NCBI GenBank assembly: GCA_029856435.1
Contig: JAHQXB010000025.1
Location: 1 to 18,958, forward strand
Direction: 5' to 3'
DNA: 18,958 nucleotides
Origin: Candidatus Jordarchaeia archaeon
Lineage (GTDB): Archaea > Asgardarchaeota > Jordiarchaeia > Jordiarchaeales > Jordiarchaeaceae
This document shows, in pieces, positions 397 to 18,958 of this stretch (its first letter is position 1; each line of letters starts with the position of its first letter). The translations under genes and the position numbers were made by a program. Below the pieces are notes generated by a model. That model had not been told where the DNA came from. It did not search any database and saw only the letters and a program-made list of their open reading frames with translations.

Positions 397-403
397 TTCT
401 TTC

Positions 404-1375: not shown

Positions 1376-1390
1376 GGAGGAAAAAGAATA

Positions 1391-1792: not shown

Positions 1793-1818
1793 TAGAATGA
1801 TTACAGGAGGAACAAGTT

Positions 1819-3132
1819 TTGGCGCGGGAAGTTGTAACTGATGTTGTTTGCCCTTTTTGTGGCTCACTCTGTGATGATGGGGAAATCGTTCTTGAAGATG
1901 GAAAGATAGTTGAGACTAGGAATCTTTGCACTATTGGTACTACCAAGTTTTTGTCGTCTCAGAATGGACACAGGATAACCAAGCCCATGATTAGAGAGAA
2001 GGGCCAACTTAAAGAGACTACTTTTGATAAGGCAGTTAAAAAGGCGGCAGAGATTCTCGTGAACGCTGAAAGGCCGCTTCTTTATGGATGGGCCTCAACC
2101 GAGTGTGACGCCCATCGTGTTGGAATTGAACTGGCGGAGGAGCTCAACGCAGTTATAGACGATACTGCAAGTGTTTGCCACGGCCCTTCAACTATCGCAA
2201 AACAGGAGGTGGGCCTTCCATCCTGTACGTTAGGGCAAGTGAAAAATAGGGCAGACGTTATTATTTATTGGGGATGTAACCCAGCACATGCACACCCCAG
2301 ACATATGTCAAGATATACTACGTTCATTAGGGGCTTTTTCAGAGAACAGGGAAAACAAGATCGAACCTTGATAGTAGTTGATGTGCGCAATACGGATACC
2401 GCTAAGCTTGCAGACCACTTTTTGCAGGTTAAGCCGGGATACGATTATGAGGTTTTAAATGCCCTTAGAGCTGTAATTAAGGGGCAACCTATCCGCGGAG
2501 AAGATGTGGGTGGAGTACCCGTCTCTAAAATTAAAGAGGTAGCCGAAGTAATGATGAATGCGGGGTTTGGAGTCATTTTCTTCGGATTGGGGCTAACCAT
2601 GTCTAGAGGGAAGCATAGAAACGTGGAAAATGCCATTAAACTCACTATTGACTTGAATGAGTACGCCAAGTTTGTGATTATGGCTATGAGAGGACACTAC
2701 AATGTTGCAGGGTTCAGTATCGTCACTGGTTGGCAGACTGGTTATCCCTTTGGAATAGACTTCCAGAGAGGCTTTCCATACTATAATCCAGGTGAAACTA
2801 CCTCTAATGAGATTCTTCAAAGAGAAGAGGCAGACGCCGTGCTCGTTATAGCCTCAGACCCAGTCTCACACTTTCCCGCCAGCAGCATTTCCTACATGGC
2901 CAAACTTCCAGTAATTGTTATTGAGCCCCACGTAACTCCAACTACAGAAATCGCAACAGTAGTTTTACCTCCAGCTATAGCAGGGGTAGAGGAAGAAGGC
3001 ACCGCCTATCGAATGGATCACGTTCCCATTAGATTAAGAAAAGTTGTTGACCCCCCCGAAGGCTGCCTACCTGACAGAAAAATTCTAGAAGCCATCCTAA
3101 GCGAAGTCAGAAAACTCAAAAGTAAAACGTAA
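1819..3132 (+). CDS. fwdB: Formylmethanofuran dehydrogenase subunit B (W/Mo-pterin catalytic subunit, Cys form)
   Basis: CPFCGSLCDD N-terminal cluster motif, SVCHGP metal-ligand motif (TGC, Cys rather than Sec), WGCNPAHAHPRH, MRGHYNVAG; TTG start with AGGAGG RBS. Confidence 0.95.
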   Translation: MAREVVTDVVCPFCGSLCDDGEIVLEDGKIVETRNLCTIGTTKFLSSQNGHRITKPMIREKGQLKETTFDKAVKKAAEILVNAERPLLYGWASTECDAHRVGIELAEELNAVIDDTASVCHGPSTIAKQEVGLPSCTLGQVKNRADVIIYWGCNPAHAHPRHMSRYTTFIRGFFREQGKQDRTLIVVDVRNTDTAKLADHFLQVKPGYDYEVLNALRAVIKGQPIRGEDVGGVPVSKIKEVAEVMMNAGFGVIFFGLGLTMSRGKHRNVENAIKLTIDLNEYAKFVIMAMRGHYNVAGFSIVTGWQTGYPFGIDFQRGFPYYNPGETTSNEILQREEADAVLVIASDPVSHFPASSISYMAKLPVIVIEPHVTPTTEIATVVLPPAIAGVEEEGTAYRMDHVPIRLRKVVDPPEGCLPDRKILEAILSEVRKLKSKT

Positions 3133-3352
3133 AACCCTCTAATTATTTATATAAATTATAAAATATCTCAACATATTTTAAAAAGACTTATTTTTCTTTT
3201 AATCTCTACAATAAACTTCAAGATTCACCTAAAAAAAGCAACTTTTTTGCAAAATAAACTACAGGAAAATTTAGTCGAAGGGGAAAACCAAAAGCGGAGT
3301 ATTACATTGATGAAAGCGTTTCATGTTTTCACCAATAATAGACAAAAAGTAT

Positions 3353-3396
3353 GCTGGGTTTAAAGACCGACAGGAAATAGCACATTCCAACCCAGC
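3353..3396. terminator. Stem-loop between convergent genes (possible terminator or 3' UTR hairpin)
   Basis: GCTGGGTT (3353-3360) / AACCCAGC (3389-3396) perfect 8-bp inverted repeat, 10 nt beyond the stop of the 3407-3883 gene. Confidence 0.35.
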
Positions 3397-3406
3397 GTTA
3401 ACTTAT

Positions 3407-3883
3407 TTATTCTCTTCTGCTACGCATCCTAGCAAAAAGATCCTTTAATTCACCTTGTAGTTGCATTCTGGCGCTCATGGGACCTCCGCCTGCTGGACTT
3501 GGGCTTGACCCTAGGCTGGGACCGGGGCCCGGACTGCGAGCTGTAGTCATTCCCCCTGCTCCTCCGTATGATGGAGCTGGTGTTGGGCGTGGGTAGGGTG
3601 ATGGCTCTCTTCCGGTGGGTTTGTACTCATAGTCCTCTTCTTGTTCGTAGCCTGTAGGGGCTTTTCTTCTTGTATCTATGCTCAAAGAGGACCCGCCGGA
3701 ACGCTGAATATCGTTAATTTTGTTTTCTAAGCTGTTTAGTCTACCCTCTATTCCGTTCATTCTTCCTTCGAGCATATCTACTGCGTTTAGTATTATTTTT
3801 ACTACTCCCGATATGATTTCTGCTAATTCTTTTACCTTTTTATCGTTGGCAAACTCGAGGATCTCGCTAAAATCGTTAGACAT
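3407..3883 (-). CDS. Hypothetical protein: N-terminal coiled coil, Pro/Gly/Ser-rich linker, C-terminal amphipathic helix
   Basis: 158-aa ORF with AGGAG RBS; heptad-like LEGRMNGIEGRLNSLENKINDI; PSPYPRPTPAP and SPGPGPSLGSSPSP; ends SARMQLQGELKDLFARMRSRRE. Confidence 0.8.
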   Translation of the reverse strand: MSNDFSEILEFANDKKVKELAEIISGVVKIILNAVDMLEGRMNGIEGRLNSLENKINDIQRSGGSSLSIDTRRKAPTGYEQEEDYEYKPTGREPSPYPRPTPAPSYGGAGGMTTARSPGPGPSLGSSPSPAGGGPMSARMQLQGELKDLFARMRSRRE

Positions 3884-4181
3884 GCAAAGTCGCTCCTAAG
3901 CTATGAAAATTTTCTTTTTTGCAACATATAAAGGTTTTCACTAAACTGCTATGCACAGTTTGTAAGTTTTTAATGTGCTCTATAATTGATTGAAAAATCT
4001 TCAAAAAGGTCTGCATTATGTTAAAAATTTTTAGAACTTAAAGGTATTTGAAAAAATTGGAGAAATTGTACGAAAGCGTAACAGACAAGCCCATTTGCAA
4101 ATTGAATTGAGAGTCGGTGGGAATAGAAAGAAGGCTATGGAGTAGATTTTACAATTTCCCTTCCTGTTTTTTGGAGTAAAA

Positions 4182-5027
4182 TTATTTAATAGTATTTCCA
4201 TTTTTCTCTTGTTCCATTTTTTTCTGTTTTCCAATTCTGCGAATTCTTCCGCAGAGTTTTTCCCAGTCAACATATATTAGAGCTAGAAATATGATTACCA
4301 GTACTGCTATGCTTGCTACCATTGTTGTTAATCCTGCCTCGCCAGAGAACCATTCAAGTATTGTTTTGCCGAAAAACTCAACATTAGAGAGAGCCTGTGC
4401 ACCATAAGCTATAACGCTGCACATAATGACCTTACCAACGATCGTTGCGATAATAGCCTTTACGTAGGAGTAATCAACAAGGCCCAAGGCTAGCATGAGC
4501 ATATCGTCTGGAAGGGGAGTGGCGGCAAATAGAACAATGAAGGGAAAGCCCCAGCCTCGCTCTATTAGGTTTCCGTATCTGACTAGGCGTTGACCGTAGC
4601 TTGAATCCTTAATTAACTCTTGTCCTCCCCTGCCAATTAGCCAAGCACTGGTTTCGCCAATGGCAGCACCGAGACCAGCACAAAGACCAATAATTAAAGC
4701 ATTGGTCCAAGGCCTAAAAAGCATTAAGAACCATAGAAAAATGACATAGGGCACAGGAAGAATAACAGTTAAATTACCTGCGATACTGACAAGTAAAACT
4801 GCAAAGTATAATCCCATTTCGCCTCCGGGGAAGTAAAGGGTAAACCATATCATCGACCAAGCTAGAGGGTTCTGCCAGAGTGAGAGCATATCAAGGAAGA
4901 ATTGTGGGGGATAAAGGTACCAGACAAGAAAGTTATAGAAAAGGTAGGGAAACGTCATTGGATTTGCTATAAAAAAAAGGGGAGTACTCGCGAAAGCTAG
5001 GTATTTTTTCTTTCCCTCATTAAACAT
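4182..5027 (-). CDS. DedA/VTT-domain (SNARE-associated) membrane protein
   Basis: Hydrophobic 281 aa with PVPY, GLGAAIGETSAWLIGRGG and FAATPLPDD motifs typical of the VTT/DedA family. Confidence 0.85.
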   Translation of the reverse strand: MFNEGKKKYLAFASTPLFFIANPMTFPYLFYNFLVWYLYPPQFFLDMLSLWQNPLAWSMIWFTLYFPGGEMGLYFAVLLVSIAGNLTVILPVPYVIFLWFLMLFRPWTNALIIGLCAGLGAAIGETSAWLIGRGGQELIKDSSYGQRLVRYGNLIERGWGFPFIVLFAATPLPDDMLMLALGLVDYSYVKAIIATIVGKVIMCSVIAYGAQALSNVEFFGKTILEWFSGEAGLTTMVASIAVLVIIFLALIYVDWEKLCGRIRRIGKQKKMEQEKNGNTIK

Positions 5028-5152
5028 TTGATCGAAACCTCATTTCATTGGTTTACCTCTATAAAAGATGTTAAGGCCTAGAGAGGGTGATCAGCTTTAG
5101 ACTATAGAGATTTAGTGTTATTGATTCAACCTTTTTTGGATCTTTGATAAGA

Positions 5153-5311
5153 TTACTCCCAAGTGGCTCCGCATTCCCTGCATTTCCAGTGCTTCTTGTA
5201 GATGGGTGTCTGACCTGCATAGCTGAGGACTTTGCCTTTGTCTTGTTCCTGTTTGATGTTTATGCTACCACATTTAGGGCATTTTACTCTAACAGATCCA
5301 GTTTCTGCCAT
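5153..5311 (-). CDS. Small Zn-ribbon protein, 52 aa (below the ORF-track size cutoff)
   Basis: Manual translation: MAETGSVRVKCPKCGSINIKQEQDKGKVLSYAGQTPIYKKHWKCRECGATWE*. CxxC...CxxC pair; AGGTG RBS 6 nt upstream of ATG. Confidence 0.85.
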   Translation of the reverse strand: MAETGSVRVKCPKCGSINIKQEQDKGKVLSYAGQTPIYKKHWKCRECGATWE

Positions 5312-5514
5312 TTCAAACACCTTTATACTATTTTATGGTTTCCAAAATGGTTACCTTGTTGTTAAATAAATATTACTTAGGTTTAATATATTATTTCTTA
5401 ATACTTATAATCCTTTTTATTTTCGCATTTTTTTGAACGAAAAAATTTTCTGTCAATTTATTTTTACGGTGAAAATGTATTTAAAACACTGTTATTTACA
5501 TGTTAAATCTCCTT

Positions 5515-5798
5515 TTAACCCATTTTTCGCGGATTTGTGAATTCCTTGGTGGGGTTGTGGAGCTTCTCATCACGACACTTCCAGCTTTTGGGAGAATGTG
5601 GATGCGGAATCGGTATAAACGTCGAGGCATCTCCAAAACCGTTTTGAGAAAAGCAAATCGCCAAAATAGCTTCGCGGAATCTGCGAAATATCGGTTTTAA
5701 AGTAATATACTTATAAAGGAATAACCGCAAAACAGAGGAAAACATACATATATATTTCTTCGTAGCAGATGGGGTATCTGAGAAACCTTTTAAAATTT
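5515..5798. repeat. Dispersed hairpin repeat, copy A (MITE-like candidate)
   Basis: Similar to 14225-14495 in three collinear blocks and to 13361-13550 in reverse orientation. Internal inverted repeat 5525-5541 / 5671-5688. Confidence 0.65.
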
Positions 5799-5877
5799 AT
5801 AGCTTCATAAGTAAATCGCTTGTTCGTTTAAAAAATAAGCTTTCAGGATTCTAAAGTAAAAGTGTTGGTGATGGTTC

Positions 5878-6855
5878 GTGGATTTAAAGGCCTACATTCA
5901 AATTACACGGCCCGTCAACTGTTTTATGGGGGGCTTGACTGTACTTTCCGCAGTGCAGGTGGCTAACATTTTCTATAACCTGAATTTACAATTCTTTTGG
6001 TCAAAATTTCCAATTTTTCCACAAAGATTTTTTGAGATTTCCTTTATAGCCTTCTTCGTATACTATTTTATTGCCGCCGCGGGTATGGTCATCAATGACA
6101 TTTTTGACCTTGAAGTTGATAGGATTAACAAACCGAGCCGCCCCCTACCGAGAGGCGCGCTAACTGTTAAACAGGCTTGGATATACACAATAATCCTCTG
6201 GGGGGTGGGAATCGTATTAGCCTTTTTGATTAGTCTAGCTTCAGGAGTACTTGCTTTAATCTTTTCGTGTGTAGGATTATTGTACGCAGCCAAGGTCAAA
6301 GTTTTGGGAATACTGGGAAATTTTGTAGTTGCATTCAGCTTCGCTTTTGGATATCTTTACGGTTCTCTCATCACTTCACTTGAGAGAGGTTTTTGGTGGA
6401 TTCCAACTATGACCTGGCTTTTTTTCATCACCGCCTTTATGGTGTTACAGGGAAGAGAAATTATCAAGGGTATGGAAGACATCGAAGGAGATAAGCTCCG
6501 AGATGTAAAAACAATAGCTCGGGTTTACGGCTTAAAAAGAGCGGGAATTCTCGGAGCCACCTGCAACATTATAGGAATAATTAGTTTTACACTATGTTGG
6601 ATAATAGATATGTTCTTACCATGGTGGGCTCCTAAACTTCTTGGCTTCTGGTTTATTCCGTTCTACTTCTTAGGAGTCGCCGCGGTGGCTGTATCGAGCA
6701 CACTAGTTCTCTGGAAATATGACTCTCAAAAAGCAGCAAAAACATCCAGCTTATTTGACAAAATTGGCGCCCTATTTGGACTCATCGCATTCCTTTTAGG
6801 CCCCTTTACAGCCACCAATATAACAATACACCCATACTTATGGTTTTGGATATAG
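5878..6855 (+). CDS. UbiA-family prenyltransferase, digeranylgeranylglyceryl phosphate (DGGGP) synthase
   Basis: ITRPVNC, INDIFDLEVDRINKPSRPLP and REIIKGMEDIEGD aspartate-rich motifs; multi-TM; GGTGA RBS. Confidence 0.9.
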   Translation: MDLKAYIQITRPVNCFMGGLTVLSAVQVANIFYNLNLQFFWSKFPIFPQRFFEISFIAFFVYYFIAAAGMVINDIFDLEVDRINKPSRPLPRGALTVKQAWIYTIILWGVGIVLAFLISLASGVLALIFSCVGLLYAAKVKVLGILGNFVVAFSFAFGYLYGSLITSLERGFWWIPTMTWLFFITAFMVLQGREIIKGMEDIEGDKLRDVKTIARVYGLKRAGILGATCNIIGIISFTLCWIIDMFLPWWAPKLLGFWFIPFYFLGVAAVAVSSTLVLWKYDSQKAAKTSSLFDKIGALFGLIAFLLGPFTATNITIHPYLWFWI

Positions 6856-6970
6856 AACAGCTAACACATGTTAAAAATATTCAGCAAAAGTTATTAATCA
6901 GGGAACTTCACCCGAAAAGAATCTAACTATTAAATGATCTTGAAAAAAGTTGGAGGATCTATAAACAAGT

Positions 6971-7333
6971 TTATGCCTCAATTTGGCGGCCTTCCAGTTT
7001 TTCTATGGCAGTTTCTATTTGCTTTTTAACATTGGAATTCTTGGCAACTAATTTTAGTGAGGAGAGGTCAACAGCTCCAGCTTCGAAGGCTTCTAAGGCG
7101 ATGGTAAGTTGGGTTAAAGAGCTACAGAGGCCTTTTCGCAGGGTAAAATAGTAGGAAAAGTCTTTGCAGGTTTCCTCAAACTTGTCTAAAGTAATATAGC
7201 AACGGTCAATGTCAGCTATCAAACCTCGAATTTGCTCGGAGGAAATCTCTGCCAAGTTCAATATACTTGTGATTTCTTTATCTAGAATTGACAGTTCCTC
7301 TTTGAGTTGTTTGGCCATATCAGTAGCTACCAT
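6971..7333 (-). CDS. Hypothetical helical protein
   Basis: 120-aa ORF with amphipathic-helix composition, filling the gap between DGGGP synthase and adenine deaminase; no recognisable motif. Confidence 0.65.
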   Translation of the reverse strand: MVATDMAKQLKEELSILDKEITSILNLAEISSEQIRGLIADIDRCYITLDKFEETCKDFSYYFTLRKGLCSSLTQLTIALEAFEAGAVDLSSLKLVAKNSNVKKQIETAIEKLEGRQIEA

Positions 7334-7546
7334 TTGTGGGGCACCATCGCTTATGATTCCGCTCTCTCAACAGATGCATTGTCAGTATTAATAACTATGT
7401 AATAATTAATTATAAATAAATCGATAATCTTTACTAAACATTTTTTTAATTTTCTAATAATTTTAAAAAAATAAAACTGTTAATAAGTATGTAATACTAG
7501 TTGTTAAAATTTTTATTTATTAATATAACAATTAGTTTTAATTAGC

Positions 7547-7578
7547 ATGTTTACTAGTTAAGTAAACATTAAGTAAAC
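7547..7578. promoter_or_regulatory. Candidate operator upstream of adenine deaminase
   Basis: ATGTTTACT-5nt-AGTAAACAT perfect 9-bp inverted repeat (7547-7569), overlapped by a TTAAGTAAAC direct repeat (7558-7567, 7569-7578). AT-rich context lowers significance. Confidence 0.3.
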
Positions 7579-7690
7579 GTATATTTCATACCTTATTAGA
7601 AATCCAAGAAAAAGTATGAAAATAGAGGATTCCTGCCTCAAAAGAACATCCCAAATGGGTAATATTTCGCAGTAAACTAGAAGTTTTAAG

Positions 7691-9451
7691 GTGAATTTCA
7701 AGATGGAAGAAATAATAAAAACAGCTCTGGGTGAGATAAAAGCAGATCTAGTAATAAAGAATACAAGCATAATTAATGTTTGCACCGGCGAAATTGAACA
7801 GGGAGACATCGCAATTAAAAATAATAAAATCGCATTGGTAGGTGACGCCTCCCACACAGTAGGTGCAAAGACAAGAGTAATAGAGGGAAGAGATAAATTT
7901 GCCTCACCAGGATTTTTTGACGCACATATACATGTTGAATCCAGCGAGATTACAATAACGGAATTTACTAAAGTTTGTATTCCACACGGCACGACCTCGA
8001 TAATTTGGGACCCACACGAAATAGCAAATGTACGGGGAGTCAATGGAATAAAAGAGATTTTAGAAGAGTCAAAAAGGCTCCCACTTAACGTTTTTGTTAT
8101 GATACCAAGCTGTGTTCCTGCAACCTCACCAAAACTTGGAACCTCTGGTGCCACAATCAGTGTTAAGGATATCTTGGAACTTTCAAACTTAGAGGGAATA
8201 ATGGGCCTGGGAGAAGTGATGAACTATCCAGGCGTCCTAAACTGTGATGTGGGTGTTCTAGCTAAAATAAAAGCTGCAAAAAAATTTAGATCAATAGACG
8301 GTCATGCCCCGGGTCTAAGGGCTGAAAAACTCTGCGCCTATTTCTCAACCGGAATTCGCTCAGACCATGAATCTGTCTCTGGTGAGGAAGGATTAGAGAA
8401 GTTGAGGAGAGGAGTGTACCTCGCAATAAGGGAGGGAACAGCATCTAAAAATTTAGCCAGCCTGATTAGGCCAATTATTGAAATGAAGCTAGAAACGAGA
8501 CACTGCCTACTGGCAACAGATGATATAAGTCCAGAGGACTTAAAGAACCGGGGAGAGGTTGATTACCTTATCAGGAGATGTATCGAGGAGGGGTTGGATC
8601 CAATGAAGGCCTACCAGATGGCTACCCTTAACCCTGCCTGTTATCTAGGAGTAGATCACATGTTTGGAAGTATAACTCCGGGAAAAAACGCAGACATAGT
8701 TTTACTCAAAGACTTGGAAAAAGTGAAGGTAACCACTACGATTGTTTCGGGAATCCCAGTTGTGTCTGATGGAAAATTAGAGGTTAGTATTCCTCAGTAT
8801 GAGTATTCTAGGGAAACGAAGAGAAGTGTTAACGTCGGAAGAATTCCAGAGCCAGAAAAGTTCCAAGTCAAAGCCCACACAAAAGATACTCAGGAAGTTA
8901 AGGTAATAGGAGCGTCGGAGGGAACCCTCTTTACAAGCTTGGAAATCGAGAAGCTAAAGGTTGAAGGAGGATTGGTCATACCCGACCCTAAAAAGGATGT
9001 ATTGCAGGTAGCGGTGGTTGAAAGACACCACGCCTCAGGAGATATTGGTAAGGGATTCGTAAAGGGATTTGGTTTAAAAGAGGGAAGTATCGCTTCCACA
9101 GTTGCTCACGACTCGCATAACATTGTTGTGGTTGGAACAAATTGGGAGGATATGGCTAAAGCGGTTTTAGAAATAGTAGAAATGCAAGGAGGTATGGTGG
9201 CGGTAAAAAGGGGAGAATGTGTTGCCCGCTTAACACTAAACTTTGCGGGTCTTATGAGCACAGCCCCCATAGAAGAAGTTATCCAGGGAGCAGAGAAACT
9301 CAAAAAGACAGTAAAAGCAATGGGCTGCAAGCTGGAAGCCCCATTTATGACCCTATCCTTCCTGTCGTTACCAGTCATTCCGGAACTAAAGATTACGGAA
9401 AAAGGACTGATAGATGTTATTAATCAGGAGATAACAAGTGTACTGGTTTAA
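7691..9451 (+). CDS. ade: Adenine deaminase (AdeC/Ade, amidohydrolase superfamily); true start probably ATG at 7703
   Basis: DAHIHVESS, WDPHEIANV, GEVMNYPGV, DGHAP, SDHE, IREG, ATDD and AHDSHN motifs; AGGTGA RBS precedes ATG 7703. Confidence 0.95.
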   Translation: MNFKMEEIIKTALGEIKADLVIKNTSIINVCTGEIEQGDIAIKNNKIALVGDASHTVGAKTRVIEGRDKFASPGFFDAHIHVESSEITITEFTKVCIPHGTTSIIWDPHEIANVRGVNGIKEILEESKRLPLNVFVMIPSCVPATSPKLGTSGATISVKDILELSNLEGIMGLGEVMNYPGVLNCDVGVLAKIKAAKKFRSIDGHAPGLRAEKLCAYFSTGIRSDHESVSGEEGLEKLRRGVYLAIREGTASKNLASLIRPIIEMKLETRHCLLATDDISPEDLKNRGEVDYLIRRCIEEGLDPMKAYQMATLNPACYLGVDHMFGSITPGKNADIVLLKDLEKVKVTTTIVSGIPVVSDGKLEVSIPQYEYSRETKRSVNVGRIPEPEKFQVKAHTKDTQEVKVIGASEGTLFTSLEIEKLKVEGGLVIPDPKKDVLQVAVVERHHASGDIGKGFVKGFGLKEGSIASTVAHDSHNIVVVGTNWEDMAKAVLEIVEMQGGMVAVKRGECVARLTLNFAGLMSTAPIEEVIQGAEKLKKTVKAMGCKLEAPFMTLSFLSLPVIPELKITEKGLIDVINQEITSVLV

Positions 9452-9456
9452 CCTTT

Positions 9457-10266
9457 TTAGGAGTAGTTATATTGCGTCTGAGACTTGTAGATTTCTTCCA
9501 TCCATCTGTTCAAAAGGTTAGGATCAAAACTACTCTTATTTCTAGTACTTGTGAACTCGACTTGGTAGAACTGAGATTCTCCAAAAAATTCTGCTATGCT
9601 TTTCTTTATGAAGGAGGATACCTTATTTGTTTCTTCTCTTAACTGTACATCTTCACAAAATTGCAGGGCAATAATAGTTATTCTAATGCTTCCCTCCCCA
9701 CCTGCACTAACCCGAGCAGAATATCTAGCATCTTCGGTGATCCATTCCAGTACGGACATATCTTCTCCTAGGGAGCTCCCCACATAGCGGTAATGAGAAA
9801 ACCATTTTCCCTTAAGTTTTTTTGCGAGTATTTTGTGGTTTATTCTTCTGGGATTAACTCTTATTTCGACCTCGCAAGAAGGAAAATCACTATGCACTGA
9901 ATCAAGAGTATACCTAGCTTTATTATCACCATTACCAAACAAATTTGATATCAGGATTTTTCCATATTTGGTTAAAAAGTATTCTTTATCCTCGTTCTTA
10001 GCTATTATTCCCCTCCTGACCAGCCTTCTTAGAGCTATGGCAAGCCTCTGCTGGTGGATATCCAATCTTCTCTTTATTCCCTGAAAACCAAAAGAGAACC
10101 CTCTGGATTTTGCGTCTTCATTATTGAAAAGTAATAAGACCTCCATTTCGGGAAAGCTCAAAACGGGAGCATTAGATACAAAGGCATTTAGTGGTAGTAG
10201 ATAATCCTTATCAAGGTAAACATTTTGGCTATTTTTAATTAAAGCATTTTGAAGGTCTTCCTGCAA
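9457..10266 (-). CDS. Hypothetical protein with a winged-helix-like DNA-binding segment
   Basis: TTG start with AGGAGGAG RBS; FSFGFQGIKRRLDIHQQRLAIALRRLVRRGII...EYFLT resembles a wHTH recognition helix plus wing; C-terminal half unassigned. Confidence 0.75.
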   Translation of the reverse strand: MQEDLQNALIKNSQNVYLDKDYLLPLNAFVSNAPVLSFPEMEVLLLFNNEDAKSRGFSFGFQGIKRRLDIHQQRLAIALRRLVRRGIIAKNEDKEYFLTKYGKILISNLFGNGDNKARYTLDSVHSDFPSCEVEIRVNPRRINHKILAKKLKGKWFSHYRYVGSSLGEDMSVLEWITEDARYSARVSAGGEGSIRITIIALQFCEDVQLREETNKVSSFIKKSIAEFFGESQFYQVEFTSTRNKSSFDPNLLNRWMEEIYKSQTQYNYS

Positions 10267-10480
10267 TACAGACTCCTCCTAAAACTAGGAAAATGAACGC
10301 AGATTCCTTCCTTACAAATCATACCAAGCGAACAACATAAGTACTAACTTAAATTTCTTTCCAATAAGGAAAGCGACGACACTAATTCACTTAGTTCTAG
10401 CCCCACAATACAAGTTTCTAAATTGGAAAAAGAGGCTTTGAAAACTCCTTTTTCGGATGCTAAACAGAATGAAAATACAT

Positions 10481-10873
10481 CCGTTCTGACCCAGCGTTAA
10501 CCTTGCGTAACTTGTCTTCCTCCCTCAAGTTTCATGGGGAGGCCTCCTCCCGGAGAACGGTTGAAGCAGGCACATCTCTCTTGCTTTCGGTGGGGGGAGA
10601 CGGGCACTGTTAACTGAGTGGCGCCTATCATACGCTATACATTTTTCGGCTCAAACACCCTTCTCCTGAGCGTATCTGTGCGTTTTTCACCCTAGGGACA
10701 ACTGCGAGCATGCTCCCATAGGTGGCTTTGAACACTCTCCGAACGTGCACACAATAGGTAACACCTAAGTTAATTGTGTCGGGGGATGTTCCCAATTATG
10801 GCTCTACCCTCCTAGGCTTTTTCGAACTTCAACTCCGCATTCTGGGCTTGTCGGCTGCACGGCACATGCATGT
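10481..10873 (+). ncRNA. Candidate structured non-coding RNA of unrecognised family
   Basis: About 52% GC (hand count 10501-10860) versus 25% at 10921-10980; no ORF of 60 aa or more; multiple nested helices, with G-U pairs mostly favouring the + strand. Confidence 0.5.
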
Positions 10874-11177
10874 ATGGTTGTTTTTGAGGAATGATGGATT
10901 TAATGGTTTTTCTTTAACGTTAACAGTTGGAAGTTTCTAAAGTTAACAAACTTTATTCTAAATAGAACCAGTTTTAACATCCCATGGAGAAAAATGCATA
11001 ATAACTCAATTGGTAGATAAAATTGATATATAGATAGATTATTTGTATAGACCAACGAAGTTTCTAAAAAACTACACAAGTCATAGTTCTTAAAGACAAA
11101 TTATGAGATTATTTCTCATAGAAAACGTCATCCGAACTAAGAGGGTATGTTAAGTCAAAACCTTTTAGAGTTTTAAG

Positions 11178-12179
11178 GTGTCTAAATTGGCAAAGAAAAC
11201 TAAAGTTTGTCCAAGGTGCCAAGCCAAATATCCTCTAACTGATTTTGAATTTTGTAGGTATTGCGGAGCCAAACTTGAAGATATAGCGGACTCAGGTAAT
11301 TCCTTGGATATAGGTGAAACTGGTAAAGTAAAGCATAGGACACTTGCCTCGTGGGGCTGGATTCCAGCAGTATTGGGATACACAGCTTCATTTATTCTAC
11401 TTTTTCTTTTTCAAAACATCCTGTCCATTATAGGAGCGTTCTTAGGCCTCCCCTTTATGTTCATACCGCTATTTGATTCATGGGTTACAACACTGACCCC
11501 AGAGTTTCTTGTTTTCATCACTTTGGGCCAGCTCGGCCTAGTAGTAATTCCTCTTCTATACCTAAAGATAAGAAATTTACCTCTGAAAGAATTGGGATTT
11601 GACTTTAAGAATAAAAAAGAGGTTCAAAACGACATCATAATAGGTACTCTAGGTGGGGGGATAATGATGGGAATCTCTTTATTTGTATCTTGGGCATCAA
11701 CCCACACACTTGCGGCACTGTACTCCCCCTTAGACACTTATATGTCAGAAATATTTTCAAACATCAATAACGCATCTTTTATGGCAGTCCACCTTTACCA
11801 ATACGTACTGCTGGTTCTAAGCATGTTTCTTTTAGTCGCCCCCAGCGAAGAAATATCAACTCGAGCCTTCCTACAACAAGGACTGGAAAATAGTTTTGGA
11901 AGATGGATTGGCCTCATCACCACTGCAATAATATTTTCAACCCTACACATATTGCTCTACCCTCAAACTGCAACTGCAATAGGATTCCCAAGCTATATCG
12001 GCTCCATATCAGCCATAATAGCCATACCTTCTTATTTCGCCCTCTCCTTAACACTAGGCTTCCTACTCCAGATAAGGAAATATAGAATAATCACTACAAT
12101 AACAGCCCACGCGGTCTACATGGCAATACTAGTATCAATATACTATTTCCAAAACTACTGGATTTACCTTTACATCTAA
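11178..12179 (+). CDS. CPBP (Abi/CAAX-type) intramembrane metalloprotease with N-terminal Zn ribbon
   Basis: CPRCQ...CRYCG at the N-terminus; SEEISTR (EExxxR), FSTLH (FxxxH) and HAVYM motifs; multiple TM helices. Confidence 0.88.
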   Translation: MSKLAKKTKVCPRCQAKYPLTDFEFCRYCGAKLEDIADSGNSLDIGETGKVKHRTLASWGWIPAVLGYTASFILLFLFQNILSIIGAFLGLPFMFIPLFDSWVTTLTPEFLVFITLGQLGLVVIPLLYLKIRNLPLKELGFDFKNKKEVQNDIIIGTLGGGIMMGISLFVSWASTHTLAALYSPLDTYMSEIFSNINNASFMAVHLYQYVLLVLSMFLLVAPSEEISTRAFLQQGLENSFGRWIGLITTAIIFSTLHILLYPQTATAIGFPSYIGSISAIIAIPSYFALSLTLGFLLQIRKYRIITTITAHAVYMAILVSIYYFQNYWIYLYI

Positions 12180-12397
12180 AACCATAACACCAACCAAAAA
12201 AGGGAATCGCCATTATTCCACACCAGAGAAAAACGCTACCCCCCCAACGAAAAATATAAAACAAAACTACCCCAATATTATCATAGAACAAGTTGGGAAA
12301 GCCGAAGAATTTTTAAAAAAGATTACACATATCTTAATGATAAGGACTAAAAACATAAATTAAAATAGAAATATAACAAATAAAGAAGGGTTAAAAC

Positions 12398-13066
12398 TTG
12401 GGCAAGAAAGAAGAGAAACTATTACGATTCGTCTCAAAGGCATGTTCCTCCCTAATCAGCACCTCCAACAAGTATATCGAATCACTCAAAAAAGCACAAG
12501 AAGCCTACACCAAACAGATAGAAAAACTCCAAAAAGAACTCGAAAAAGCCGCGAAAGGAATGGAAATCGAACTCACAGCAGTAGACTTATCCATACCCAC
12601 AGCCACAGCAGAAGTTGCGGAGGAACCAATAATAACCACAACAAGTACACTAGAAACATTCGCCAGCAAAACCGCACCAGACGACGTATTTGATATGTTC
12701 TCAAAGTCTGGACCTCCAGCTGCAACAGTTACCAGTGCTCCACCAAGTGCTGGTGCCCCACCAAGAGTGGGTGCCCCACCAAGTGCTGGTGCCCCACCAA
12801 GAGTGGGTGCCCCACCAAGTGCTGGTGCCCCACCAAGAGTGGGTGCCCCACCAAGTGCTGGTGCCCCACCAAGTGCTGGTGCCCCACCAAGAGTGGGTGC
12901 CCCACCAAGTGCTGGTGCCCCACCAAGTGCTGGTGTGCCGAGTGTTTCTGTTTCTCCTCCTGTAGGGGCTGCCACAGTTCAGGATGCTGCCTCTATTACT
13001 GATCTTAGGAATGCTATGATGACTGAGCTTAGTAGACTGAAGAAGCTGTTTGCTGCAGAGGAATAA
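12398..13066 (+). CDS. Hypothetical protein: N-terminal coiled coil, PP(SA/RV)GA repeat tract, C-terminal helix
   Basis: 222-aa ORF; YIESLKKAQEAYTKQIEKLQKELEKAAK coiled coil; 11 hexapeptide repeats; ends DLRNAMMTELSRLKKLFAAEE. Confidence 0.85.
   Translation: MGKKEEKLLRFVSKACSSLISTSNKYIESLKKAQEAYTKQIEKLQKELEKAAKGMEIELTAVDLSIPTATAEVAEEPIITTTSTLETFASKTAPDDVFDMFSKSGPPAATVTSAPPSAGAPPRVGAPPSAGAPPRVGAPPSAGAPPRVGAPPSAGAPPSAGAPPRVGAPPSAGAPPSAGVPSVSVSPPVGAATVQDAASITDLRNAMMTELSRLKKLFAAEE
12740..12937 (+). repeat. In-frame tandem repeat, 11 x 18 bp
   Basis: Units A = CCACCAAGTGCTGGTGCC (PPSAGA) and B = CCACCAAGAGTGGGTGCC (PPRVGA) in the order ABABABAABAA; the last unit ends GTG. Confidence 0.97.
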
Positions 13067-13228
13067 TTAGGTAATGTTGAGGGGAGAGAATTTATTTTGT
13101 GAGTCTCCCTTCGTTATATGTCTTGGTAACTTTGTTCTTTGAGGGTTATTTTACTATCTCAATATGTTTTCTGGTTAGAGGATAGAGGTTCTGACAATAC
13201 GTTTTTAGCCGAATCATAGGGTATTTCA

Positions 13229-13242
13229 TATCGTATACGATA
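13229..13242. other. Perfect 14-bp palindrome TATCGTATACGATA
   Basis: Read directly in the intergenic region; function unknown. Confidence 0.5.
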
Positions 13243-13360
13243 GTATTGGCGTGTAGCGGTTTTCGGTTAATTGCTTCTACAAGCTTTTCTGGTTGGAAGA
13301 ACCTTTATTGCTTTGTTTTTTCCTTTTTCGGTTGCTTAGAGTTTCTTTGATTTATCGCAT

Positions 13361-13550
13361 CTCCGGGCGATGGATTCGCAAAATCTCGTGTTTTTGGGGC
13401 CTTTTTTGGCGCTTCTCAAAACTGTTTCTCACCACTTAAGGGGTGGAAATATTAAAAATTGAGGAAGAACACCGATAAAACCATAAATTATCAGGGAACA
13501 TGGCGGCAAAAAAAACCATAGCAAAGATCCTGCGAATCTATCGCCCGGGG
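13361..13550. repeat. Dispersed hairpin repeat, copy C (inverted relative to A and B), with 26-bp inverted arms
   Basis: Arms 13361-13386 / 13525-13550 pair at 22 of 26 positions, and all four differences are transitions. Internal TTTTGGCG..TTCTCAAAAC.GTTT matches the reverse complement of copy A. Confidence 0.7.
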
Positions 13551-13802
13551 AAGGCGGCTTTTCGCATCATTTAAAGGTAAGTGAGGGAGCATCTTGAGGG
13601 AGAGTGTGTTGGTTGTTGTAAGTTTGAGTTAGAGGATTATTACCAAAGAGGGGTAATATTTGATTTCTTAATTAGTTTTTGTTAAAAGGTATTATTTTTG
13701 TTTATTTTTTGAAGGTTTTACGTTTAGAAAATTAATAAATAGGGGTATTATTTGGGGACTTGTAAAGTTTTGAGGGGAATAGTTGTGCTAGGCTTATTTA
13801 TC

Positions 13803-14057
13803 TTATCTGTATTTTAACTCGTATAATTCGCTGCTGTTTGGTATGTAGAAGGAATCGTTGAAAAAGATCACAGGTTTTCGGAATAGAACTGCTAGTTTCA
13901 AAAATGGCGATATTTGTTCGTCTCCCTTAAATACAATTTTTGCGGAGATAGCTCCACCTTCCTTAAAATCTGCGGGAACTATTATTGGTACACGCTCTTC
14001 CTTTGCTTTGATTTTTACTTTTTCAGCGAATACTTTTTTCTCATCCTCTTTTGGCAT
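13803..14057 (-). CDS. Hypothetical protein, 84 aa
   Basis: Strong AGGAGG RBS before ATG; plausible alpha/beta composition; no recognised motif. Confidence 0.7.
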   Translation of the reverse strand: MPKEDEKKVFAEKVKIKAKEERVPIIVPADFKEGGAISAKIVFKGDEQISPFLKLAVLFRKPVIFFNDSFYIPNSSELYELKYR

Positions 14058-14224
14058 TAATTTTTCCTCCTGTAAGATTGAACTTTATTGTAATGAGATA
14101 TCATATTTTTATTACACAGATTAATGATTTTTTCGGATTTTCCATCTTTTTGATTAATATTTGGGAATAAGGTTATAATAACTTTTTTTATTTGACAACG
14201 ACGAACCCTAGTTATAACTGTTGA

Positions 14225-14495
14225 TTAACCCATTTTTCGAGAGGTTGAGAAACCTTTGTAAGAGTGGCAAAGCATCCTATCATCATAATTCTTTTTGAGA
14301 GTTTCTTATATTAGGCCAGTGAAACCACAACGAAAATCGGCGAACATATTAATGGAAGAACAATTGTCCAAATAGCTTCGAAGAATCCGCAAAATATGGA
14401 TTTTATAAACAATGTTTAATGAAGGCTTATGTTCCTATTTAAAATCAAGATGGTACTCTTTTCGGAAGGTGTGTCTGAATCAGTTTTTAAATTTT
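14225..14495. repeat. Dispersed hairpin repeat, copy B (decayed)
   Basis: Shares TTAACCCATTTTTCG, AAATAGCTTCG..GAATC.GC.AAATAT and a terminal GT.TCTGA block with copy A at near-identical spacing. Confidence 0.65.
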
Positions 14496-15813
14496 AAAAT
14501 ATGTGTCTAGGCTTTTTTGTTGTGTTTGCTTTGGAGTCTTTACTTCGCTCTTCTCTTCTTCTAAAATTATTTTTCCATAAACTCCATCAAAGCCGGGGCT
14601 AATCTTTATTTTTTCTTCTCGATTTCTGATTACTAGTTCAGCAATTTTTTCGTTAACCACTCCTGCTATATCTTCTTTAGGAACATTGAGCAGTATATTG
14701 TACTCATTATTGAATGAATGCACAAGTTTGTAGTATGTGTCCCAAATCTGTTTGGCGTAAAGGTTCTCAATTCCTAGGGCAACGGAAATTAGCTCGGATA
14801 AGGGTATTAATTTTTTATAGGGAATAAAATTTTTAGGAATATAGTTTTCTTCTCTATCTGCTAATTCGTCTACCCTGTGTTGTACCCCGATGGTCAGCTT
14901 TTTCCTACATATCGGGCAGATGTTACCTATCTTCTTTGCCTCTTTAGGGGACATACAAACCTCCTCACTTGAGGAGTGTTTATCTGCCCTATGACCATCG
15001 AAGTGGTATTTTACGGCTAACTGCGGGTCGAAGTTAGTTTCCGTATGCGGGGTCAACTTCAATGGTCATAAGGATTTTTTTCTTATTTTTTGTTTTTATG
15101 GCATCTAACAATTCGGTGTAGGATGGTTTTTCTAGTTCGTAAAGGTTTGCCTCCCTTCCGAGCCTCCAATTAAATGGGCTGTGGGAATCGCTGTTGCTCA
15201 TTAAGACGTATCTGTCCAGTTTGCTAAGTCTCCAGTTCATAGCTGGATCAGAAGATAGACCGGTTTCAACAGAATGTATATGTTTGACTTGGTCTTCGTA
15301 ACACTCTTCTAGGCTGTCGAAACCGTTTTCTCCTAATGCTCCAAACCAGCTGGTCCACAGGTGTGCGGGAACAATAAGTATTCGTTCGTCGATAGATATG
15401 AGATTCTCGACTAGTTCGGCGGGAGTGATACTTAGAACTGGTCTTCCATCAACCTCCAGATTTCCATAGTTCGCTAGGAATTCGTTTATTCGATCTACCA
15501 CTTCGAAATTGGGAGCGAATAAAATGTGATGAATCTTCTTGAAAGTATTTTTGTAATTGAAGACGGTTGACACCTCAGTAGAAAGAATAAAGAATACGTC
15601 ATTTTCGTCTTTAACCCTAAAAAAGCCCGAGTCCTCAATCTCTACCAGTTTGCTTTTTAACTCCGACAGCCATTTTGGATGAGAAAAGTCCCCTGAACCC
15701 AGAAGCTTTAAACCTTTAAGTTTAGCATGCCTTACCAAATTTTCAATATCCATTTTGTCACTAGTAGCCCTACTATATTTACTATGTATGTGTAGGTCAG
15801 AAAAAAACTGCAT
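14487..15813 (-). CDS. Endonuclease Q family (PHP-domain) nuclease, two exons: 15813-15039 and 15010-14487; 432 aa after splicing
   Basis: DLHIHSKYSRATS, GSGDFSHP, STEVS, PAHLWT, ETGLSSD, SNSDSHS and CPICRKKLTIGVQHRV motifs. Removing 28 nt joins ...EVDPAYG-K-YHFDGHR..., giving 1299 nt (433 codons including the stop). Confidence 0.88.
15011..15038 (-). other. 28-nt bulge-helix-bulge (BHB) intron in a protein-coding gene
   Basis: Minus strand: AT-ACGG-AAA-CTAACT-(9-nt loop)-AGTTAG-CCGT-AAA-AT. This gives a 4-bp central helix, two 3-nt bulges and flanking helices; it contains an in-frame TAA and a frameshift. Confidence 0.85.
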
Positions 15814-15976
15814 AAAACTCCTCCGTACTTGCCATAAGAGTATTATCTAAATCTTCACTATTAATGTATCTGTTTTCTTAAAAGGGTTTATCTTACAACT
15901 CTAAAAATGCATAGAAAAGGTAGGAGTATATTTCAATAGAAATAATAAAGTATTGCAGTGTGGAAGTACTGCCCTT

Positions 15977-17245
15977 TTATACACCTTTTAGGAGAGGGAG
16001 TGTCACAGCTCCCCAAGGAAATATTACACAATCCGCATTTTGCTTTCCAGTCTTTTCTATAGCGGTTTCTAGGTCTTCAGCATATTCTAGTCCGATTTTT
16101 TCTATGACCTTCTTTTCTATTCCATCAGTAACTACTATTATTTTGTGTTTACTTTTAACTAGGGAGTATAAGTAGAGGACGCAGCTTTCTCCGGGAAGTT
16201 TTCCTTTGTCTAGCATTTTAAACAATTTTTTTGGTTTAGGATTCTCCAAGAGCATTTTTTCAAAAATTTCGCTGTGGGATAGCCCATCCCAGCAGGGTGC
16301 TACATGTATTATGACACCATTTTGTTTAGCGGCTAGGGAAGAAGCGAACATAGCCTTCATCGATTTGCCAAAGGTGGCGTCCTTTGGGTGAGAACTAGCT
16401 ATTACAACATCCACCCTTTTTTCAAGACTCACACCATAAATTTTCTTTGCTTGTTCAACTGCTTTCTGGTGAGCACTGACAACATTTCCAGCGAATACGT
16501 CATATATATTTTCGTTAACGTCCATAGTGACATTTACAATCATATCTAATCCGAGCAACCTAGCAGCATCTTCACTATCTTTGCGTATTAGGTTTCCCTC
16601 AATTTTACCAAATTCTGCTCTAAATAATTTAATCATAGAATGGTTTTGGTTAATTGTTTGTCTCCCCGCAACGCCGGGTATAATGATTCCAGCTCCCCCC
16701 GTGAAGCCCATCAACTCGTGAGGGGTAACGCTGCCAATACCAATTTTTAACTCTGCCTCAACAACTTTTTTATTAATGAGTATCTCAACACCCTGAGGAG
16801 TTTTTCCAATGTGGGTTAAGTTGTTGTCGGGATCATGATTAAGTACGTTAACTCTCTCTAAAACAGTTTTACCTAGTTTCTTTTCCATATCTCTTTCATT
16901 AAGATGTTCGTGTAATCCCACTCCAATAATAACGGTAACTTTTCTATCAGAAATACCCGCGCGGTTTAACTCGTCAAGCAAAGGGGGTATGATAAGATTT
17001 GATGGAGTTGGACGTGCATTATCATCTGATATTATCACGGCGTCTCTTTTTCGCTGTGCGATGCTGTATAATTTTTCGGCGTCCACTGGATTTCTCACCG
17101 CTCTCAAAACCGCCTCATAAGAATCAAGTCTTTTATTAGTTACTTTAGGCGATAGGACGCCTAGTAGGTTCCAATCAGAGGGTATCCTGAATTTAATCTG
17201 TTTTTCGCCGTACGGAATTTGAATATCCCTCAACTTATTCACCAT
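15977..17245 (-). CDS. LarA-family (nickel-pincer-dependent lactate racemase-like) protein
   Basis: IPYG N-terminus, DDNARPTPS, GVGLHEH, PHELMGFTGG, NQNH and KSMKA match LarA-family motifs. Confidence 0.88.
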   Translation of the reverse strand: MVNKLRDIQIPYGEKQIKFRIPSDWNLLGVLSPKVTNKRLDSYEAVLRAVRNPVDAEKLYSIAQRKRDAVIISDDNARPTPSNLIIPPLLDELNRAGISDRKVTVIIGVGLHEHLNERDMEKKLGKTVLERVNVLNHDPDNNLTHIGKTPQGVEILINKKVVEAELKIGIGSVTPHELMGFTGGAGIIIPGVAGRQTINQNHSMIKLFRAEFGKIEGNLIRKDSEDAARLLGLDMIVNVTMDVNENIYDVFAGNVVSAHQKAVEQAKKIYGVSLEKRVDVVIASSHPKDATFGKSMKAMFASSLAAKQNGVIIHVAPCWDGLSHSEIFEKMLLENPKPKKLFKMLDKGKLPGESCVLYLYSLVKSKHKIIVVTDGIEKKVIEKIGLEYAEDLETAIEKTGKQNADCVIFPWGAVTLPLLKGV

Positions 17246-17305
17246 TTTTTGGAATGTTTATGGACTACAAGTATAATGAGGTTTTCAGTTTGCCGTGGTA
17301 CAATT

Positions 17306-18784
17306 CTAGTAGGCTTTGGCCACGTATACTACTGACTTTGCTTTTCCACCGCAGATTATGCAGTTGCCTTTCGGTTTTTCTTCTTTTCCGTAGAGTTTGC
17401 CTCTTACTTCGTATCCTCCAGTCTCTACTTTAATTACTTCTGCACACTTTGCATTATCACAGAAATCAATCTTTATGAAACCCCCCCTATTTTTCGCTAT
17501 TTCTAGAAACTCCTCTCTACTTTTTGCTTCATGGATGTTTTCTTCCAAGTCCTTTTCTCTCCGCGTCCTCAGCTCCTTTAAAATGTCCTCCCGCAATTGT
17601 TCTATGACTTCCAAAATTTTTCCCTCTTTGACCTGTATGCGTTCGCGTTTGTCCCTTCTAAAAACTGTTATCATACCTTTTTCTATATCCTTGGGACCTA
17701 TCTCAAGTCTTATGGGCACGCCTAACAGCTCCCAATGGTAGAATTTTGCTCCCGGGCGATCCTCCGAATTGTCAAGTTTAACTCGGTAGCCTCGGTCTTT
17801 AAGTTTATGATAGATTTCTTCGCACTTCTCCGTTATAAGTTCGTTCTGCCCCTTTTTAGGTATGGGAACTATAACAATTTGGGTTGGAGCCACGTGAAAG
17901 GGTAATATTAGGCCATAATTGTCTCCATGCATGCTGATAATGGTCGCGGCTATTCTCGATATTCCTATGCCGAAACATGTCTGTTGACCATATTTTTTGG
18001 TTCCATCTACATCCTCGAAAGTAATCTCGAAGGCTCTAGAGAAGTTCTCTCCTAGGAGGTGTGTGGTAGCAATCTGTAACACATTCCTGTCTGGGAAAAG
18101 AACATCGAACGCATACGATTTTTCTGCTCCCGCGAACCTGTCCCATTCCGGCCTTTCCATAAGTAGAAATGGAATACCCAGCTGATCATGGAGAACGTCT
18201 ATCGTTATTTTCATATCTTCTTTTACTTGTTTTACCGCATCTTCTAATGTCCTGTGAACGTCGTGTGCTTCTATCCAGTAGAACTCTCTGCCTCGAATCA
18301 AAGGTTTGGTGGCCTTAGTTTCATATCGGTAAACAGTATTGCTTTGATATAGTTTTAGGGGTAGATCACGGTAGCTGCGAATCCAATAGGCGTAGAGAGG
18401 ATACATTGCAGTTTCAGAAGTGGGCCTCAATAATAGCGCTTTATCAAGTTCAGTGTCGCCCGCCCGCGTCACCCAGAAAACTTCTCCAGAAAATCCCTTA
18501 ATATGTTCTGCTTCCTTTTGAAAGAATTCTAGGGGGATTACGACGGGAAAATTGCAAATTTGATGCCCATGTTCGTCTAACGCGTCTTCAAATAAGCGAT
18601 AGGTTTGCCTCATTATTGTTGCAATATTTGGACGATATACTATGAATCCCTTTACACCATAGCGGAGGTCTACTAATTCAGCTTTATGGATGATTTCATT
18701 ATACCATTCACTAAAGTTCTGTTCCTTGTCTGGCAAAGGAGGCGCAGCATCTTCAAGCATTAGACCACCAACCACGTGAAACAC
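17306..18784 (-). CDS. proS: Prolyl-tRNA synthetase, archaeal/eukaryote type (true start probably ATG at 18760)
   Basis: FSEWY, RPTSET, RGREFYWIEAH, QIATTHLLGENF, GIGISR motifs, anticodon-binding domain, and C-terminal Zn-binding C..C...CIICG ending in AKAY. Confidence 0.97.
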   Translation of the reverse strand: MFHVVGGLMLEDAAPPLPDKEQNFSEWYNEIIHKAELVDLRYGVKGFIVYRPNIATIMRQTYRLFEDALDEHGHQICNFPVVIPLEFFQKEAEHIKGFSGEVFWVTRAGDTELDKALLLRPTSETAMYPLYAYWIRSYRDLPLKLYQSNTVYRYETKATKPLIRGREFYWIEAHDVHRTLEDAVKQVKEDMKITIDVLHDQLGIPFLLMERPEWDRFAGAEKSYAFDVLFPDRNVLQIATTHLLGENFSRAFEITFEDVDGTKKYGQQTCFGIGISRIAATIISMHGDNYGLILPFHVAPTQIVIVPIPKKGQNELITEKCEEIYHKLKDRGYRVKLDNSEDRPGAKFYHWELLGVPIRLEIGPKDIEKGMITVFRRDKRERIQVKEGKILEVIEQLREDILKELRTRREKDLEENIHEAKSREEFLEIAKNRGGFIKIDFCDNAKCAEVIKVETGGYEVRGKLYGKEEKPKGNCIICGGKAKSVVYVAKAY

Positions 18785-18958
18785 ACCATCAATTTGATAA
18801 TCGATGCATAAGTCTTCAGCACAAACTAGACTACTAACACAAATGATTCTTGAAACATAACGAACACTTAATTACCAAAGTTTAACATTGGCTTAGATTT
18901 AAAACATTGTGTTTTCATATAAACTTTTTTCAGCATTTAGGTTGTCTCATAAAACGTT

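Follow-up and report, generated by a model that had tools for sequence, protein, structure and literature searches.

The stretch of DNA analysed here, referred to as the window, comprises positions 1 to 18,958 (18,958 nucleotides) of contig JAHQXB010000025.1 from a Candidatus Jordarchaeia archaeon (assembly GCA_029856435.1; contig C24 in our numbering). On its minus strand, two overlapping open reading frames (ORFs), 15813..15034 and 15062..14487, together correspond to endoQ, the gene for the DNA-repair enzyme endonuclease Q (EndoQ). Our analysis indicates that they are the two halves of one gene, interrupted by a 28-nt bulge-helix-bulge (BHB) intron with the topology found in tRNA precursors, which would be removed from the mRNA by the splicing endonuclease EndA and the ligase RtcB. 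The host genome is a metagenome-assembled genome (MAG) of 3.54 Mb in 181 contigs, with 42% G+C, 98% completeness, and 5.7% contamination. A preliminary description of the window, made from the sequence alone, had considered what would follow if the host were an Asgard archaeon, and this is indeed the case, as the genome belongs to the class Jordiarchaeia (Jordarchaeia/Freyarchaeota). In GTDB this class contains the families Freyrarchaeaceae and Jordiarchaeaceae (bioRxiv 10.64898/2026.10.13.758758).

A Pfam search of both half-ORFs gave no match in either. Both match the NCBIfam model TIGR00375 (first half, profile positions 3-236; second half, 249-374), and each half alone scores under the whole-protein cut-off of this model. 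In these family searches and in the structure comparison the exons were examined singly rather than as the spliced protein; exon 1 aligned with residues 5-242 of the Pyrococcus furiosus enzyme (PfuEndoQ; 5zb8, 7k30) with E=5e-37, and exon 2 with residues 260-390 of the same structures with E=1e-15. The sequence match spans the PHP, Zn-binding, and helical domains, as in endonuclease Q (TIGR00375 / PF27218), and more than 5,000 longer homologs of the product were found, many of which, including the best, are annotated as members of the endonuclease Q family. The metal ligands of PfuEndoQ are His8, His10, Glu76, His84, His139, and Asp193 (PMC5961232), and in an alignment read by eye the motifs DLHIHS, STEV, IHHIL, PAH, and SNSDSH of the host protein face the motifs that hold them. 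From these similarities to the P. furiosus enzyme we infer that the product cleaves DNA 5' of deoxyuridine and deoxyinosine (dU/dI).

The break between the halves falls within a conserved motif. When the halves were aligned with ten full-length homologs, the first stopped at ...DPAY and the second started at KYH, and the full-length homologs show a gapless DPAYGKYH(W/Y/F)xGHR at the intron site. The PHP domain of PfuEndoQ covers residues 1-238 and its Zn-binding domain residues 239-303 (PMC5961232); the intron, which lies between the codons equivalent to G242 and K243, is therefore placed four residues into the Zn-binding domain. In the P. furiosus enzyme the K243A substitution sharply lowers activity (PMC5961232).

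Read on the minus strand from 15048 to 15003, the interrupted region is GCAT ACGG AAA CTAACT TCGACCCGC AGTTAG CCGT AAA ATACCAC, and its parts (Table 1) follow the order of a tRNA BHB element: exon strand, 5' bulge, intron hairpin, intron strand, 3' bulge, and outer helix. Two 3-nt bulges on opposite strands are separated by a 4-bp helix, which is flanked by an outer helix and by an inner helix of 6 bp. EndA cuts after the second nucleotide of each bulge of a BHB element. Cuts placed by this rule take out 15038-15011 (28 nt) and leave GCA TAC GGA AAA TAC CAC, giving an open coding sequence (CDS) that reads DPAYG/KYH (here and below, the slash in a peptide marks the splice junction). Four cut registers yield the identical product because runs of A flank the cut sites, and the BHB rule picks one of them. 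Excision joins the two ORFs into a single CDS of 1299 nt and 432 aa without an internal stop. Unspliced, the region reads GGA AAC TAA, with the in-frame TAA inside the intron at 15036-15034, and the predicted product is a 259-aa PHP domain with the C-terminus ...DPAYGN; the tryptic peptide ILMTIEVDPAYGK is the predicted marker of the spliced product. On all of these points the preliminary description has stood up: it had read the two ORFs as one EndoQ-family gene with a 28-nt insertion, which the homolog alignment and the TIGR00375 and PfuEndoQ matches on both exons support, and a base-for-base check found its helix, bulge, and loop coordinates correct, together with the restoration of the frame and of the GKYH motif by excision and the halt of the unspliced frame at TAA.

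Table 1. Features of the endoQ gene and its BHB intron in the window
Feature	Coordinates	Strand	Details
endoQ exon 1	15039..15813	-	ATG at 15813; PHP nuclease domain to ...EVDPAYG plus base 1 of the Lys codon
BHB intron, 28 nt	15011..15038	-	A + CTAACT + 9-nt loop + AGTTAG + CCGT + AA
endoQ exon 2	14487..15010	-	begins with AA of the Lys codon (KYHFDGHR...); Zn-binding and C-terminal helical domains; stop codon 14489-14487
Central 4-bp helix, exon strand ACGG	15041..15044	-	part of the Tyr-Gly codons; pairs with 15013-15016
Central 4-bp helix, intron strand CCGT	15013..15016	-	partner of ACGG
5' bulge AAA	15038..15040	-	predicted cut 15039/15038
3' bulge AAA	15010..15012	-	predicted cut 15011/15010
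Intron-internal hairpin	15017..15037	-	6-bp helix 15037-15032/15022-15017; 9-nt loop 15031-15023
Outer helix, 3' strand	15006..15009	-	T15045-A15009, A15046-T15008, C/A mismatch, G15048-C15006; short, weak

The minimum-energy fold (ViennaRNA) has the same helix/3-nt bulge/helix arrangement, at -10.7 kcal/mol (z = -2.14). A strict BHB scan of 7.1 million strand positions of the genome, with 53 lengths considered, returned 37,715 hits, and because such hits make up only about 1e-4 of the (position, length) combinations, a chance motif in exactly the frame-restoring register is unlikely. A blastn-short search of the host genome, which bears on a possible origin as a mobile element, found no second copy of the endoQ intron with its flanks.

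The strongest evidence for the element comes from comparison with related genomes. Each of the 11 species genomes that represent the class, among them the closed chromosome CP147778, has an insert between the same Gly and Lys codons, and so do three metagenome variants. By contrast, all 44 distinct intronless homologs read P-x-Y-G-K-Y-H, with the two codons directly adjacent (0 nt); these homologs derive from other Asgard families, Thermoproteota, Aenigmatarchaeota, Micrarchaeota, and further groups. Among the Freyrarchaeaceae-type sequences the insert measures 28 nt in seven of nine distinct cases and 32 nt in two, and among the Jordiarchaeaceae it measures 28 nt in genome L010 and 29, 24, 29, and 29 nt in the remaining four. 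Because the lengths differ (24, 28, 29, and 32 nt), the resulting frame shift varies by species between 0, +1, and +2; the insert of L012 keeps the frame yet contains a TAG. Cuts placed by the BHB rule restore the frame for every one of these lengths. The preliminary description had pointed to an alignment of orthologs as a way to check its proposal, and the outcome favours it, with the insert in all 11 species of the class, variable in length and with compensatory pairs.

We examined covariation on the alignment of the 11 genomes, using 500 shuffles and, as controls, 3' partners slid by 1-3 columns. The proposed structure was paired in 91.5% of cells compared with 29-41% for slid partners, and none of the 500 shuffles reached the observed pairing percentage or covariation score. 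Across the 11 genomes five pairs have changes on both sides, and the outer helix is paired in 97% of cells; in the inner helix, four of the six pairs have changed on both sides among relatives, and the loop varies freely. The central helix, one strand of which is coding, shows a C-G to U-A double change in two of the 11 genomes and in two further metagenome variants. The Tyr codon TAT goes with intron CCAT and TAC goes with CCGT (L008, L009, L067, and L091 have TAT/CCAT), the exon side of the double change being the synonymous TAC to TAT. Furthermore, the bulge-forming exon bases are constrained, since the Gly codon GGA together with the Lys codon AAA occurs in 14 of 14 intron-bearing genes but in 13 of 44 intronless ones. 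The strict geometry of two bulges and a 4-bp helix is kept in genus g1 and in L010, and the motif is relaxed in genus g2 of the Jordiarchaeaceae. The comparative data settle the reality of the BHB element, and they show that it is ancestral to the class and that selection has kept its structure.

The host encodes the machinery that such an intron would need. Two genes match PF01974 (EndA), L002:1178-1756 on contig C104 (192 aa) and L003:1195-1788 on contig C64 (197 aa). The C104 protein has Tyr, His, and Lys at the expected places of the catalytic triad, as read by eye, and is nearest to the catalytic subunits of the Aeropyrum, Sulfolobus, and Pyrobaculum enzymes; the closest solved structure is 3p1z_B, the catalytic subunit of the Aeropyrum (alpha-beta)2 enzyme. 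The C64 paralog does not have the catalytic His. Judging from their sequences, the two proteins probably form an (alpha-beta)2 EndA, the type known for a broad substrate range (PMC5829648). An RtcB gene is found on contig C93 (PF01139, E=5e-174), and both EndA and RtcB are thus encoded. This is the sole RtcB ligase gene of the genome, and it is itself interrupted by a 30-nt in-frame BHB-type insert containing a TGA (CCCG aca CATGAAGAGAATCGCCTCCCATG CGGG aag; L065, ~1545-1580, minus strand), with inner strands CATG...CATG and a position within the RtcB match at 302-1636. The BHB rule restores L-P-D/A-H-Q-G-Y-G with its conserved PD/AH motif, and because no other RtcB gene is present, making new ligase would need ligase that is already there.

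Several other explanations of the two ORFs have to be weighed against an intron. In a MAG of 181 contigs with 5.7% contamination, an artefact of assembly or sequencing is the obvious concern, and the preliminary description had named the absence of the insertion from raw reads as a finding that would overturn it. The insert recurs in 11 independent assemblies (CP147778 among them), in contigs from JGI metagenomes, and in Logan contigs of three runs; the contig that Logan built from the probable source run matches the window exactly, insert included, at depth 76, and those of the other two runs belong to relatives with 96% identity. We consider the chance of an artefact negligible. It is also very unlikely that the gene has decayed into a pseudogene or been split into two polypeptides, one with the PHP domain and the other with the Zn-binding and helical domains. 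This possibility draws on the fact that gene callers list two ORFs and that the host has a TTG 15-17 codons upstream of KYH, which could serve as a start for the second. Against decay, Nei-Gojobori ratios of nonsynonymous to synonymous substitution (dN/dS), where dS could be measured, lie at 0.04-0.11 in exon 1 and 0.075-0.11 in exon 2, and in the deeper comparisons, between families, synonymous sites have reached saturation; both exons are thus under purifying selection, and the 14 intron-bearing endoQ sequences contain no other frameshift or stop. As for a split gene, the exon-1 frame closes 1-9 codons past the Gly codon in every species, and in 4 of the 14 sequences the exon-2 frame has no ATG, GTG, or TTG between its closing stop and KYH. 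No upstream start is conserved among the 14, and a separate C-terminal protein would therefore have no conserved start. The break would also disrupt an invariant motif, immediately ahead of the position that corresponds to PfuEndoQ Lys243, and the covariation of the insert structure speaks against decay and splitting alike.

Translational recoding, either by a +1 frameshift or by a ribosomal hop as in T4 gene 60, would yield a full-length protein with no RNA processing. The +1 frame of the host is open through the insert (TNFDPQLAV), and a stop codon and hairpin following the GGA codon lend the site a superficial likeness to gene 60. However, inserts of 24, 28, 29, and 32 nt would each demand a different shift, and this variation among species rules out a conserved frameshift or hop. 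The insert of L012 is in frame and contains a TAG, the frame of L008 and L091 is not restored by a +1 shift, and the exon-2 frame of L006, a sequence with 96% identity, closes three codons upstream. There is also no in-frame landing codon matching GGA, and the selection seen acts on base pairing rather than on a peptide; recoding is, in our judgement, extremely unlikely. Removal of the insert from the RNA by enzymes other than EndA and RtcB, such as another nuclease and an unknown ligase, has in its favour that rtcB itself is interrupted. The geometry of the element, however, is exactly that of an EndA substrate, the canonical cuts restore the frame in every species, and to our knowledge EndA and RtcB are the only archaeal enzymes known for the BHB motif (PMC7714728), so we regard this variant as highly unlikely.

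Some observations weigh against an intron removed by EndA and RtcB. Public runs gave no RNA over the junction and no spliced joints; in the true metatranscriptome run X22, from sediment, a single 406-nt contig of 92% identity covers 15363-15768, which lies in exon 1 only. Because this RNA contig matches exon 1, endoQ of a relative appears to be transcribed. Contigs of runs X8 and X10 cross the site with the insert retained, and these runs are labelled metatranscriptomic but were flagged as probably DNA. In addition, the z-score of the single-sequence fold is modest, the outer helix has only 2 bp, a mismatch, and 1 bp, and the four g2 genomes of the Jordiarchaeaceae have G.A as their fourth central pair or, in an alternative reading, a 3-bp helix with a GAA bulge; in this genus the frame is restored only in the register with the G.A pair. 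Finally, the pathway is extrapolated from other archaea, and the host's ligase gene carries an insert of its own. With these points taken into account, we believe that endoQ of this archaeon is one gene interrupted by a 28-nt BHB intron that would be spliced by EndA and RtcB, and we put the probability of this at about 0.88.

Similar inserts are found elsewhere in the host genome. The pseudouridine synthase gene cbf5 carries one of 31 nt (CACT aga GCTTCC...GGGGGC AGTG aaa; contig C73, L102 ~1800-1830, minus strand) just upstream of the TruB_N match at 22487-22798, and its excision restores GTL/DPKVTGVLP. In ahcY, an in-frame insert of 30 nt with a TAA (TGGG aaa C-A-TAAACAC CCCCC GTGTTTA-A-G CCCA aat; contig C81, L064 ~2085-2115, plus strand) lies inside the AdoHcyase match at 47639-48976, and excision restores T-K-W-E/F-D-N. 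The SecY, RpoB, and PGK genes and both EndA genes of the host showed no interruption. A further BHB candidate of 28 nt was noted on contig C136 (minus strand, reverse-complement index 5612; CGGG aca GTCTAGAAAACTTTTCTGGAC CCCG aaa), which would join open frames of 223 and 324 codons.

A genome-wide scan, which the preliminary description had suggested, required a 4-bp centre with at most one G-U pair, four inner pairs, and at least two of three outer pairs, and was followed by an ORF-fusion test. It recovered endoQ, rtcB, cbf5, and the C136 candidate; in total numbers, the true cut offset gave 417 ORF-fusion hits compared with 422-447 at offsets shifted by 1-2 nt, and tighter filters gave 8 vs 4-9 and 6 vs 1-2. 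The scan is noise-dominated and cannot count mRNA introns. Searches for tRNA genes found 2 with ARAGORN defaults and 7 with Rfam RF00005, nearly all of them over-long at 92-107 nt. These scarce and over-long predictions fit the published intron load of the class, as introns have been found in 92-95% of the tRNA genes of Freyarchaeia and Atabeyarchaeia, often several per gene and at non-canonical sites (PMC11291895).

In Atabeyarchaeia, endoQ has no insert between the Gly and Lys codons. It is instead interrupted after GTGD, by 54 nt in G021 (L021:2161-2214) and 41 nt in G031 (L026:2158-2198), both on minus strands. The flanks of these inserts, GGAG/CTCC or GGGG/CTCC followed by ACTC(G)/(C)GAGT, are BHB-like, and the different site points to a second, independent invasion of endoQ. 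Taken together, we think it likely that the endoQ intron is a single instance of mRNA splicing that the tRNA-splicing machinery performs routinely and genome-wide in two intron-rich Asgard classes, where introns would have entered many protein genes and endoQ twice independently.

The closest known parallel is the BHB intron in the cbf5 pre-mRNA of Desulfurococcales and Sulfolobales (Watanabe 2002; Yokobori 2009, PMC2738675). Introns in other archaeal protein genes were called only predicted in 2009 (PMC2738675), and a BHB intron has been described in the 5' untranslated region (UTR) of the Haloferax volcanii HVO_1309 mRNA, with processing by EndA shown in vivo and in vitro (PMC7714728). In the literature outside subscription journals we found a confirmed BHB intron within an archaeal coding sequence only in cbf5, in addition to the one in the Haloferax 5' UTR, which agrees with the statement in the preliminary description that archaeal mRNA introns of this type are documented mainly for cbf5. 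Two papers on Asgard tRNA introns (PMC11291895; bioRxiv 10.64898/2026.10.13.758758) make no mention of protein-coding introns, and a wider literature search found none. Like its crenarchaeal cbf5 counterpart, the endoQ intron is a short BHB intron in a coding sequence that is conserved across a clade and breaks the frame when unspliced. The cbf5 intron is cut by the tRNA-splicing endonuclease, and for endoQ the same would hold on the evidence of sequence. Unlike the crenarchaeal case, the interrupted gene encodes a DNA-repair nuclease rather than a pseudouridine synthase, the host is an Asgard archaeon rather than a member of the Thermoproteota, and the intron is one of several in a genome whose cbf5 also has one. 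The finding extends the cbf5-type intron to another gene and another phylum.

The tRNA introns of Freyarchaeia and Atabeyarchaeia share the hBHBh' geometry, a similar size range, and the same lineages, and presumably the same enzymes, but the endoQ intron resides in an mRNA, with codons forming the exon strands of its helices. It also differs from the HVO_1309 intron, which lies in a UTR and leaves the frame uninterrupted. A more distant resemblance exists in eukaryotes, where HAC1/XBP1 mRNA is spliced by Ire1 together with Trl1 or RtcB under stress regulation. By analogy, both systems would combine a protein-only endonuclease acting at paired stem-loops with a tRNA ligase (RtcB in animals) and a change of frame, with ligation of a 2',3'-cyclic phosphate end. 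The differences are the nuclease, which is Ire1 in eukaryotes, and stress regulation; no sign of regulation was found for endoQ.

In the mechanism that we propose, EndA, acting as a catalytic subunit with a His-lacking paralog and probably as an (alpha-beta)2 enzyme, would cut the endoQ pre-mRNA in both bulges (15039/15038 and 15011/15010), RtcB would ligate the exons, and the 28-nt intron would be released, probably as a circle. An unspliced mRNA would give a PHP domain lacking the two domains, Zn-binding and helical, with which PfuEndoQ holds DNA, so that only spliced mRNA would yield active EndoQ and its production would depend on the tRNA-splicing machinery. The preliminary description had suggested that this might act as a regulatory switch, for which we found nothing in support. 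Because similar introns sit in unrelated housekeeping genes, a general spread of introns is a better account than dedicated control of EndoQ, and the likeliest origin of the endoQ intron is a spread from tRNA genes into mRNAs that has left many such introns in an intron-rich lineage. Its fixation over the class predates the saturation of synonymous sites. The data are consistent with a neutral or selfish spread to sites able to form a BHB element, with dependence on splicing as a consequence rather than a purpose, and the invasion of endoQ in two lineages, each at its own site, is relevant to the way in which introns reach coding sequence.

If the endoQ intron is removed as proposed, mRNAs of Asgard archaea must be spliced by EndA and RtcB. 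There is a practical side to this, as mRNA introns interrupt frames and gene callers will consequently split or truncate real genes in such genomes; endoQ itself was called as two ORFs and left blank by Pfam. The intron is also a clean, short substrate for testing archaeal mRNA splicing. If the genome-wide pattern holds as well, the cell's output of repair, metabolic, and RNA-processing proteins would be tied to its EndA/RtcB capacity, and protein-only mRNA splicing would be present in the closest prokaryotic relatives of eukaryotes. Once shown in RNA, this wider pattern in the lineage would be of high interest.

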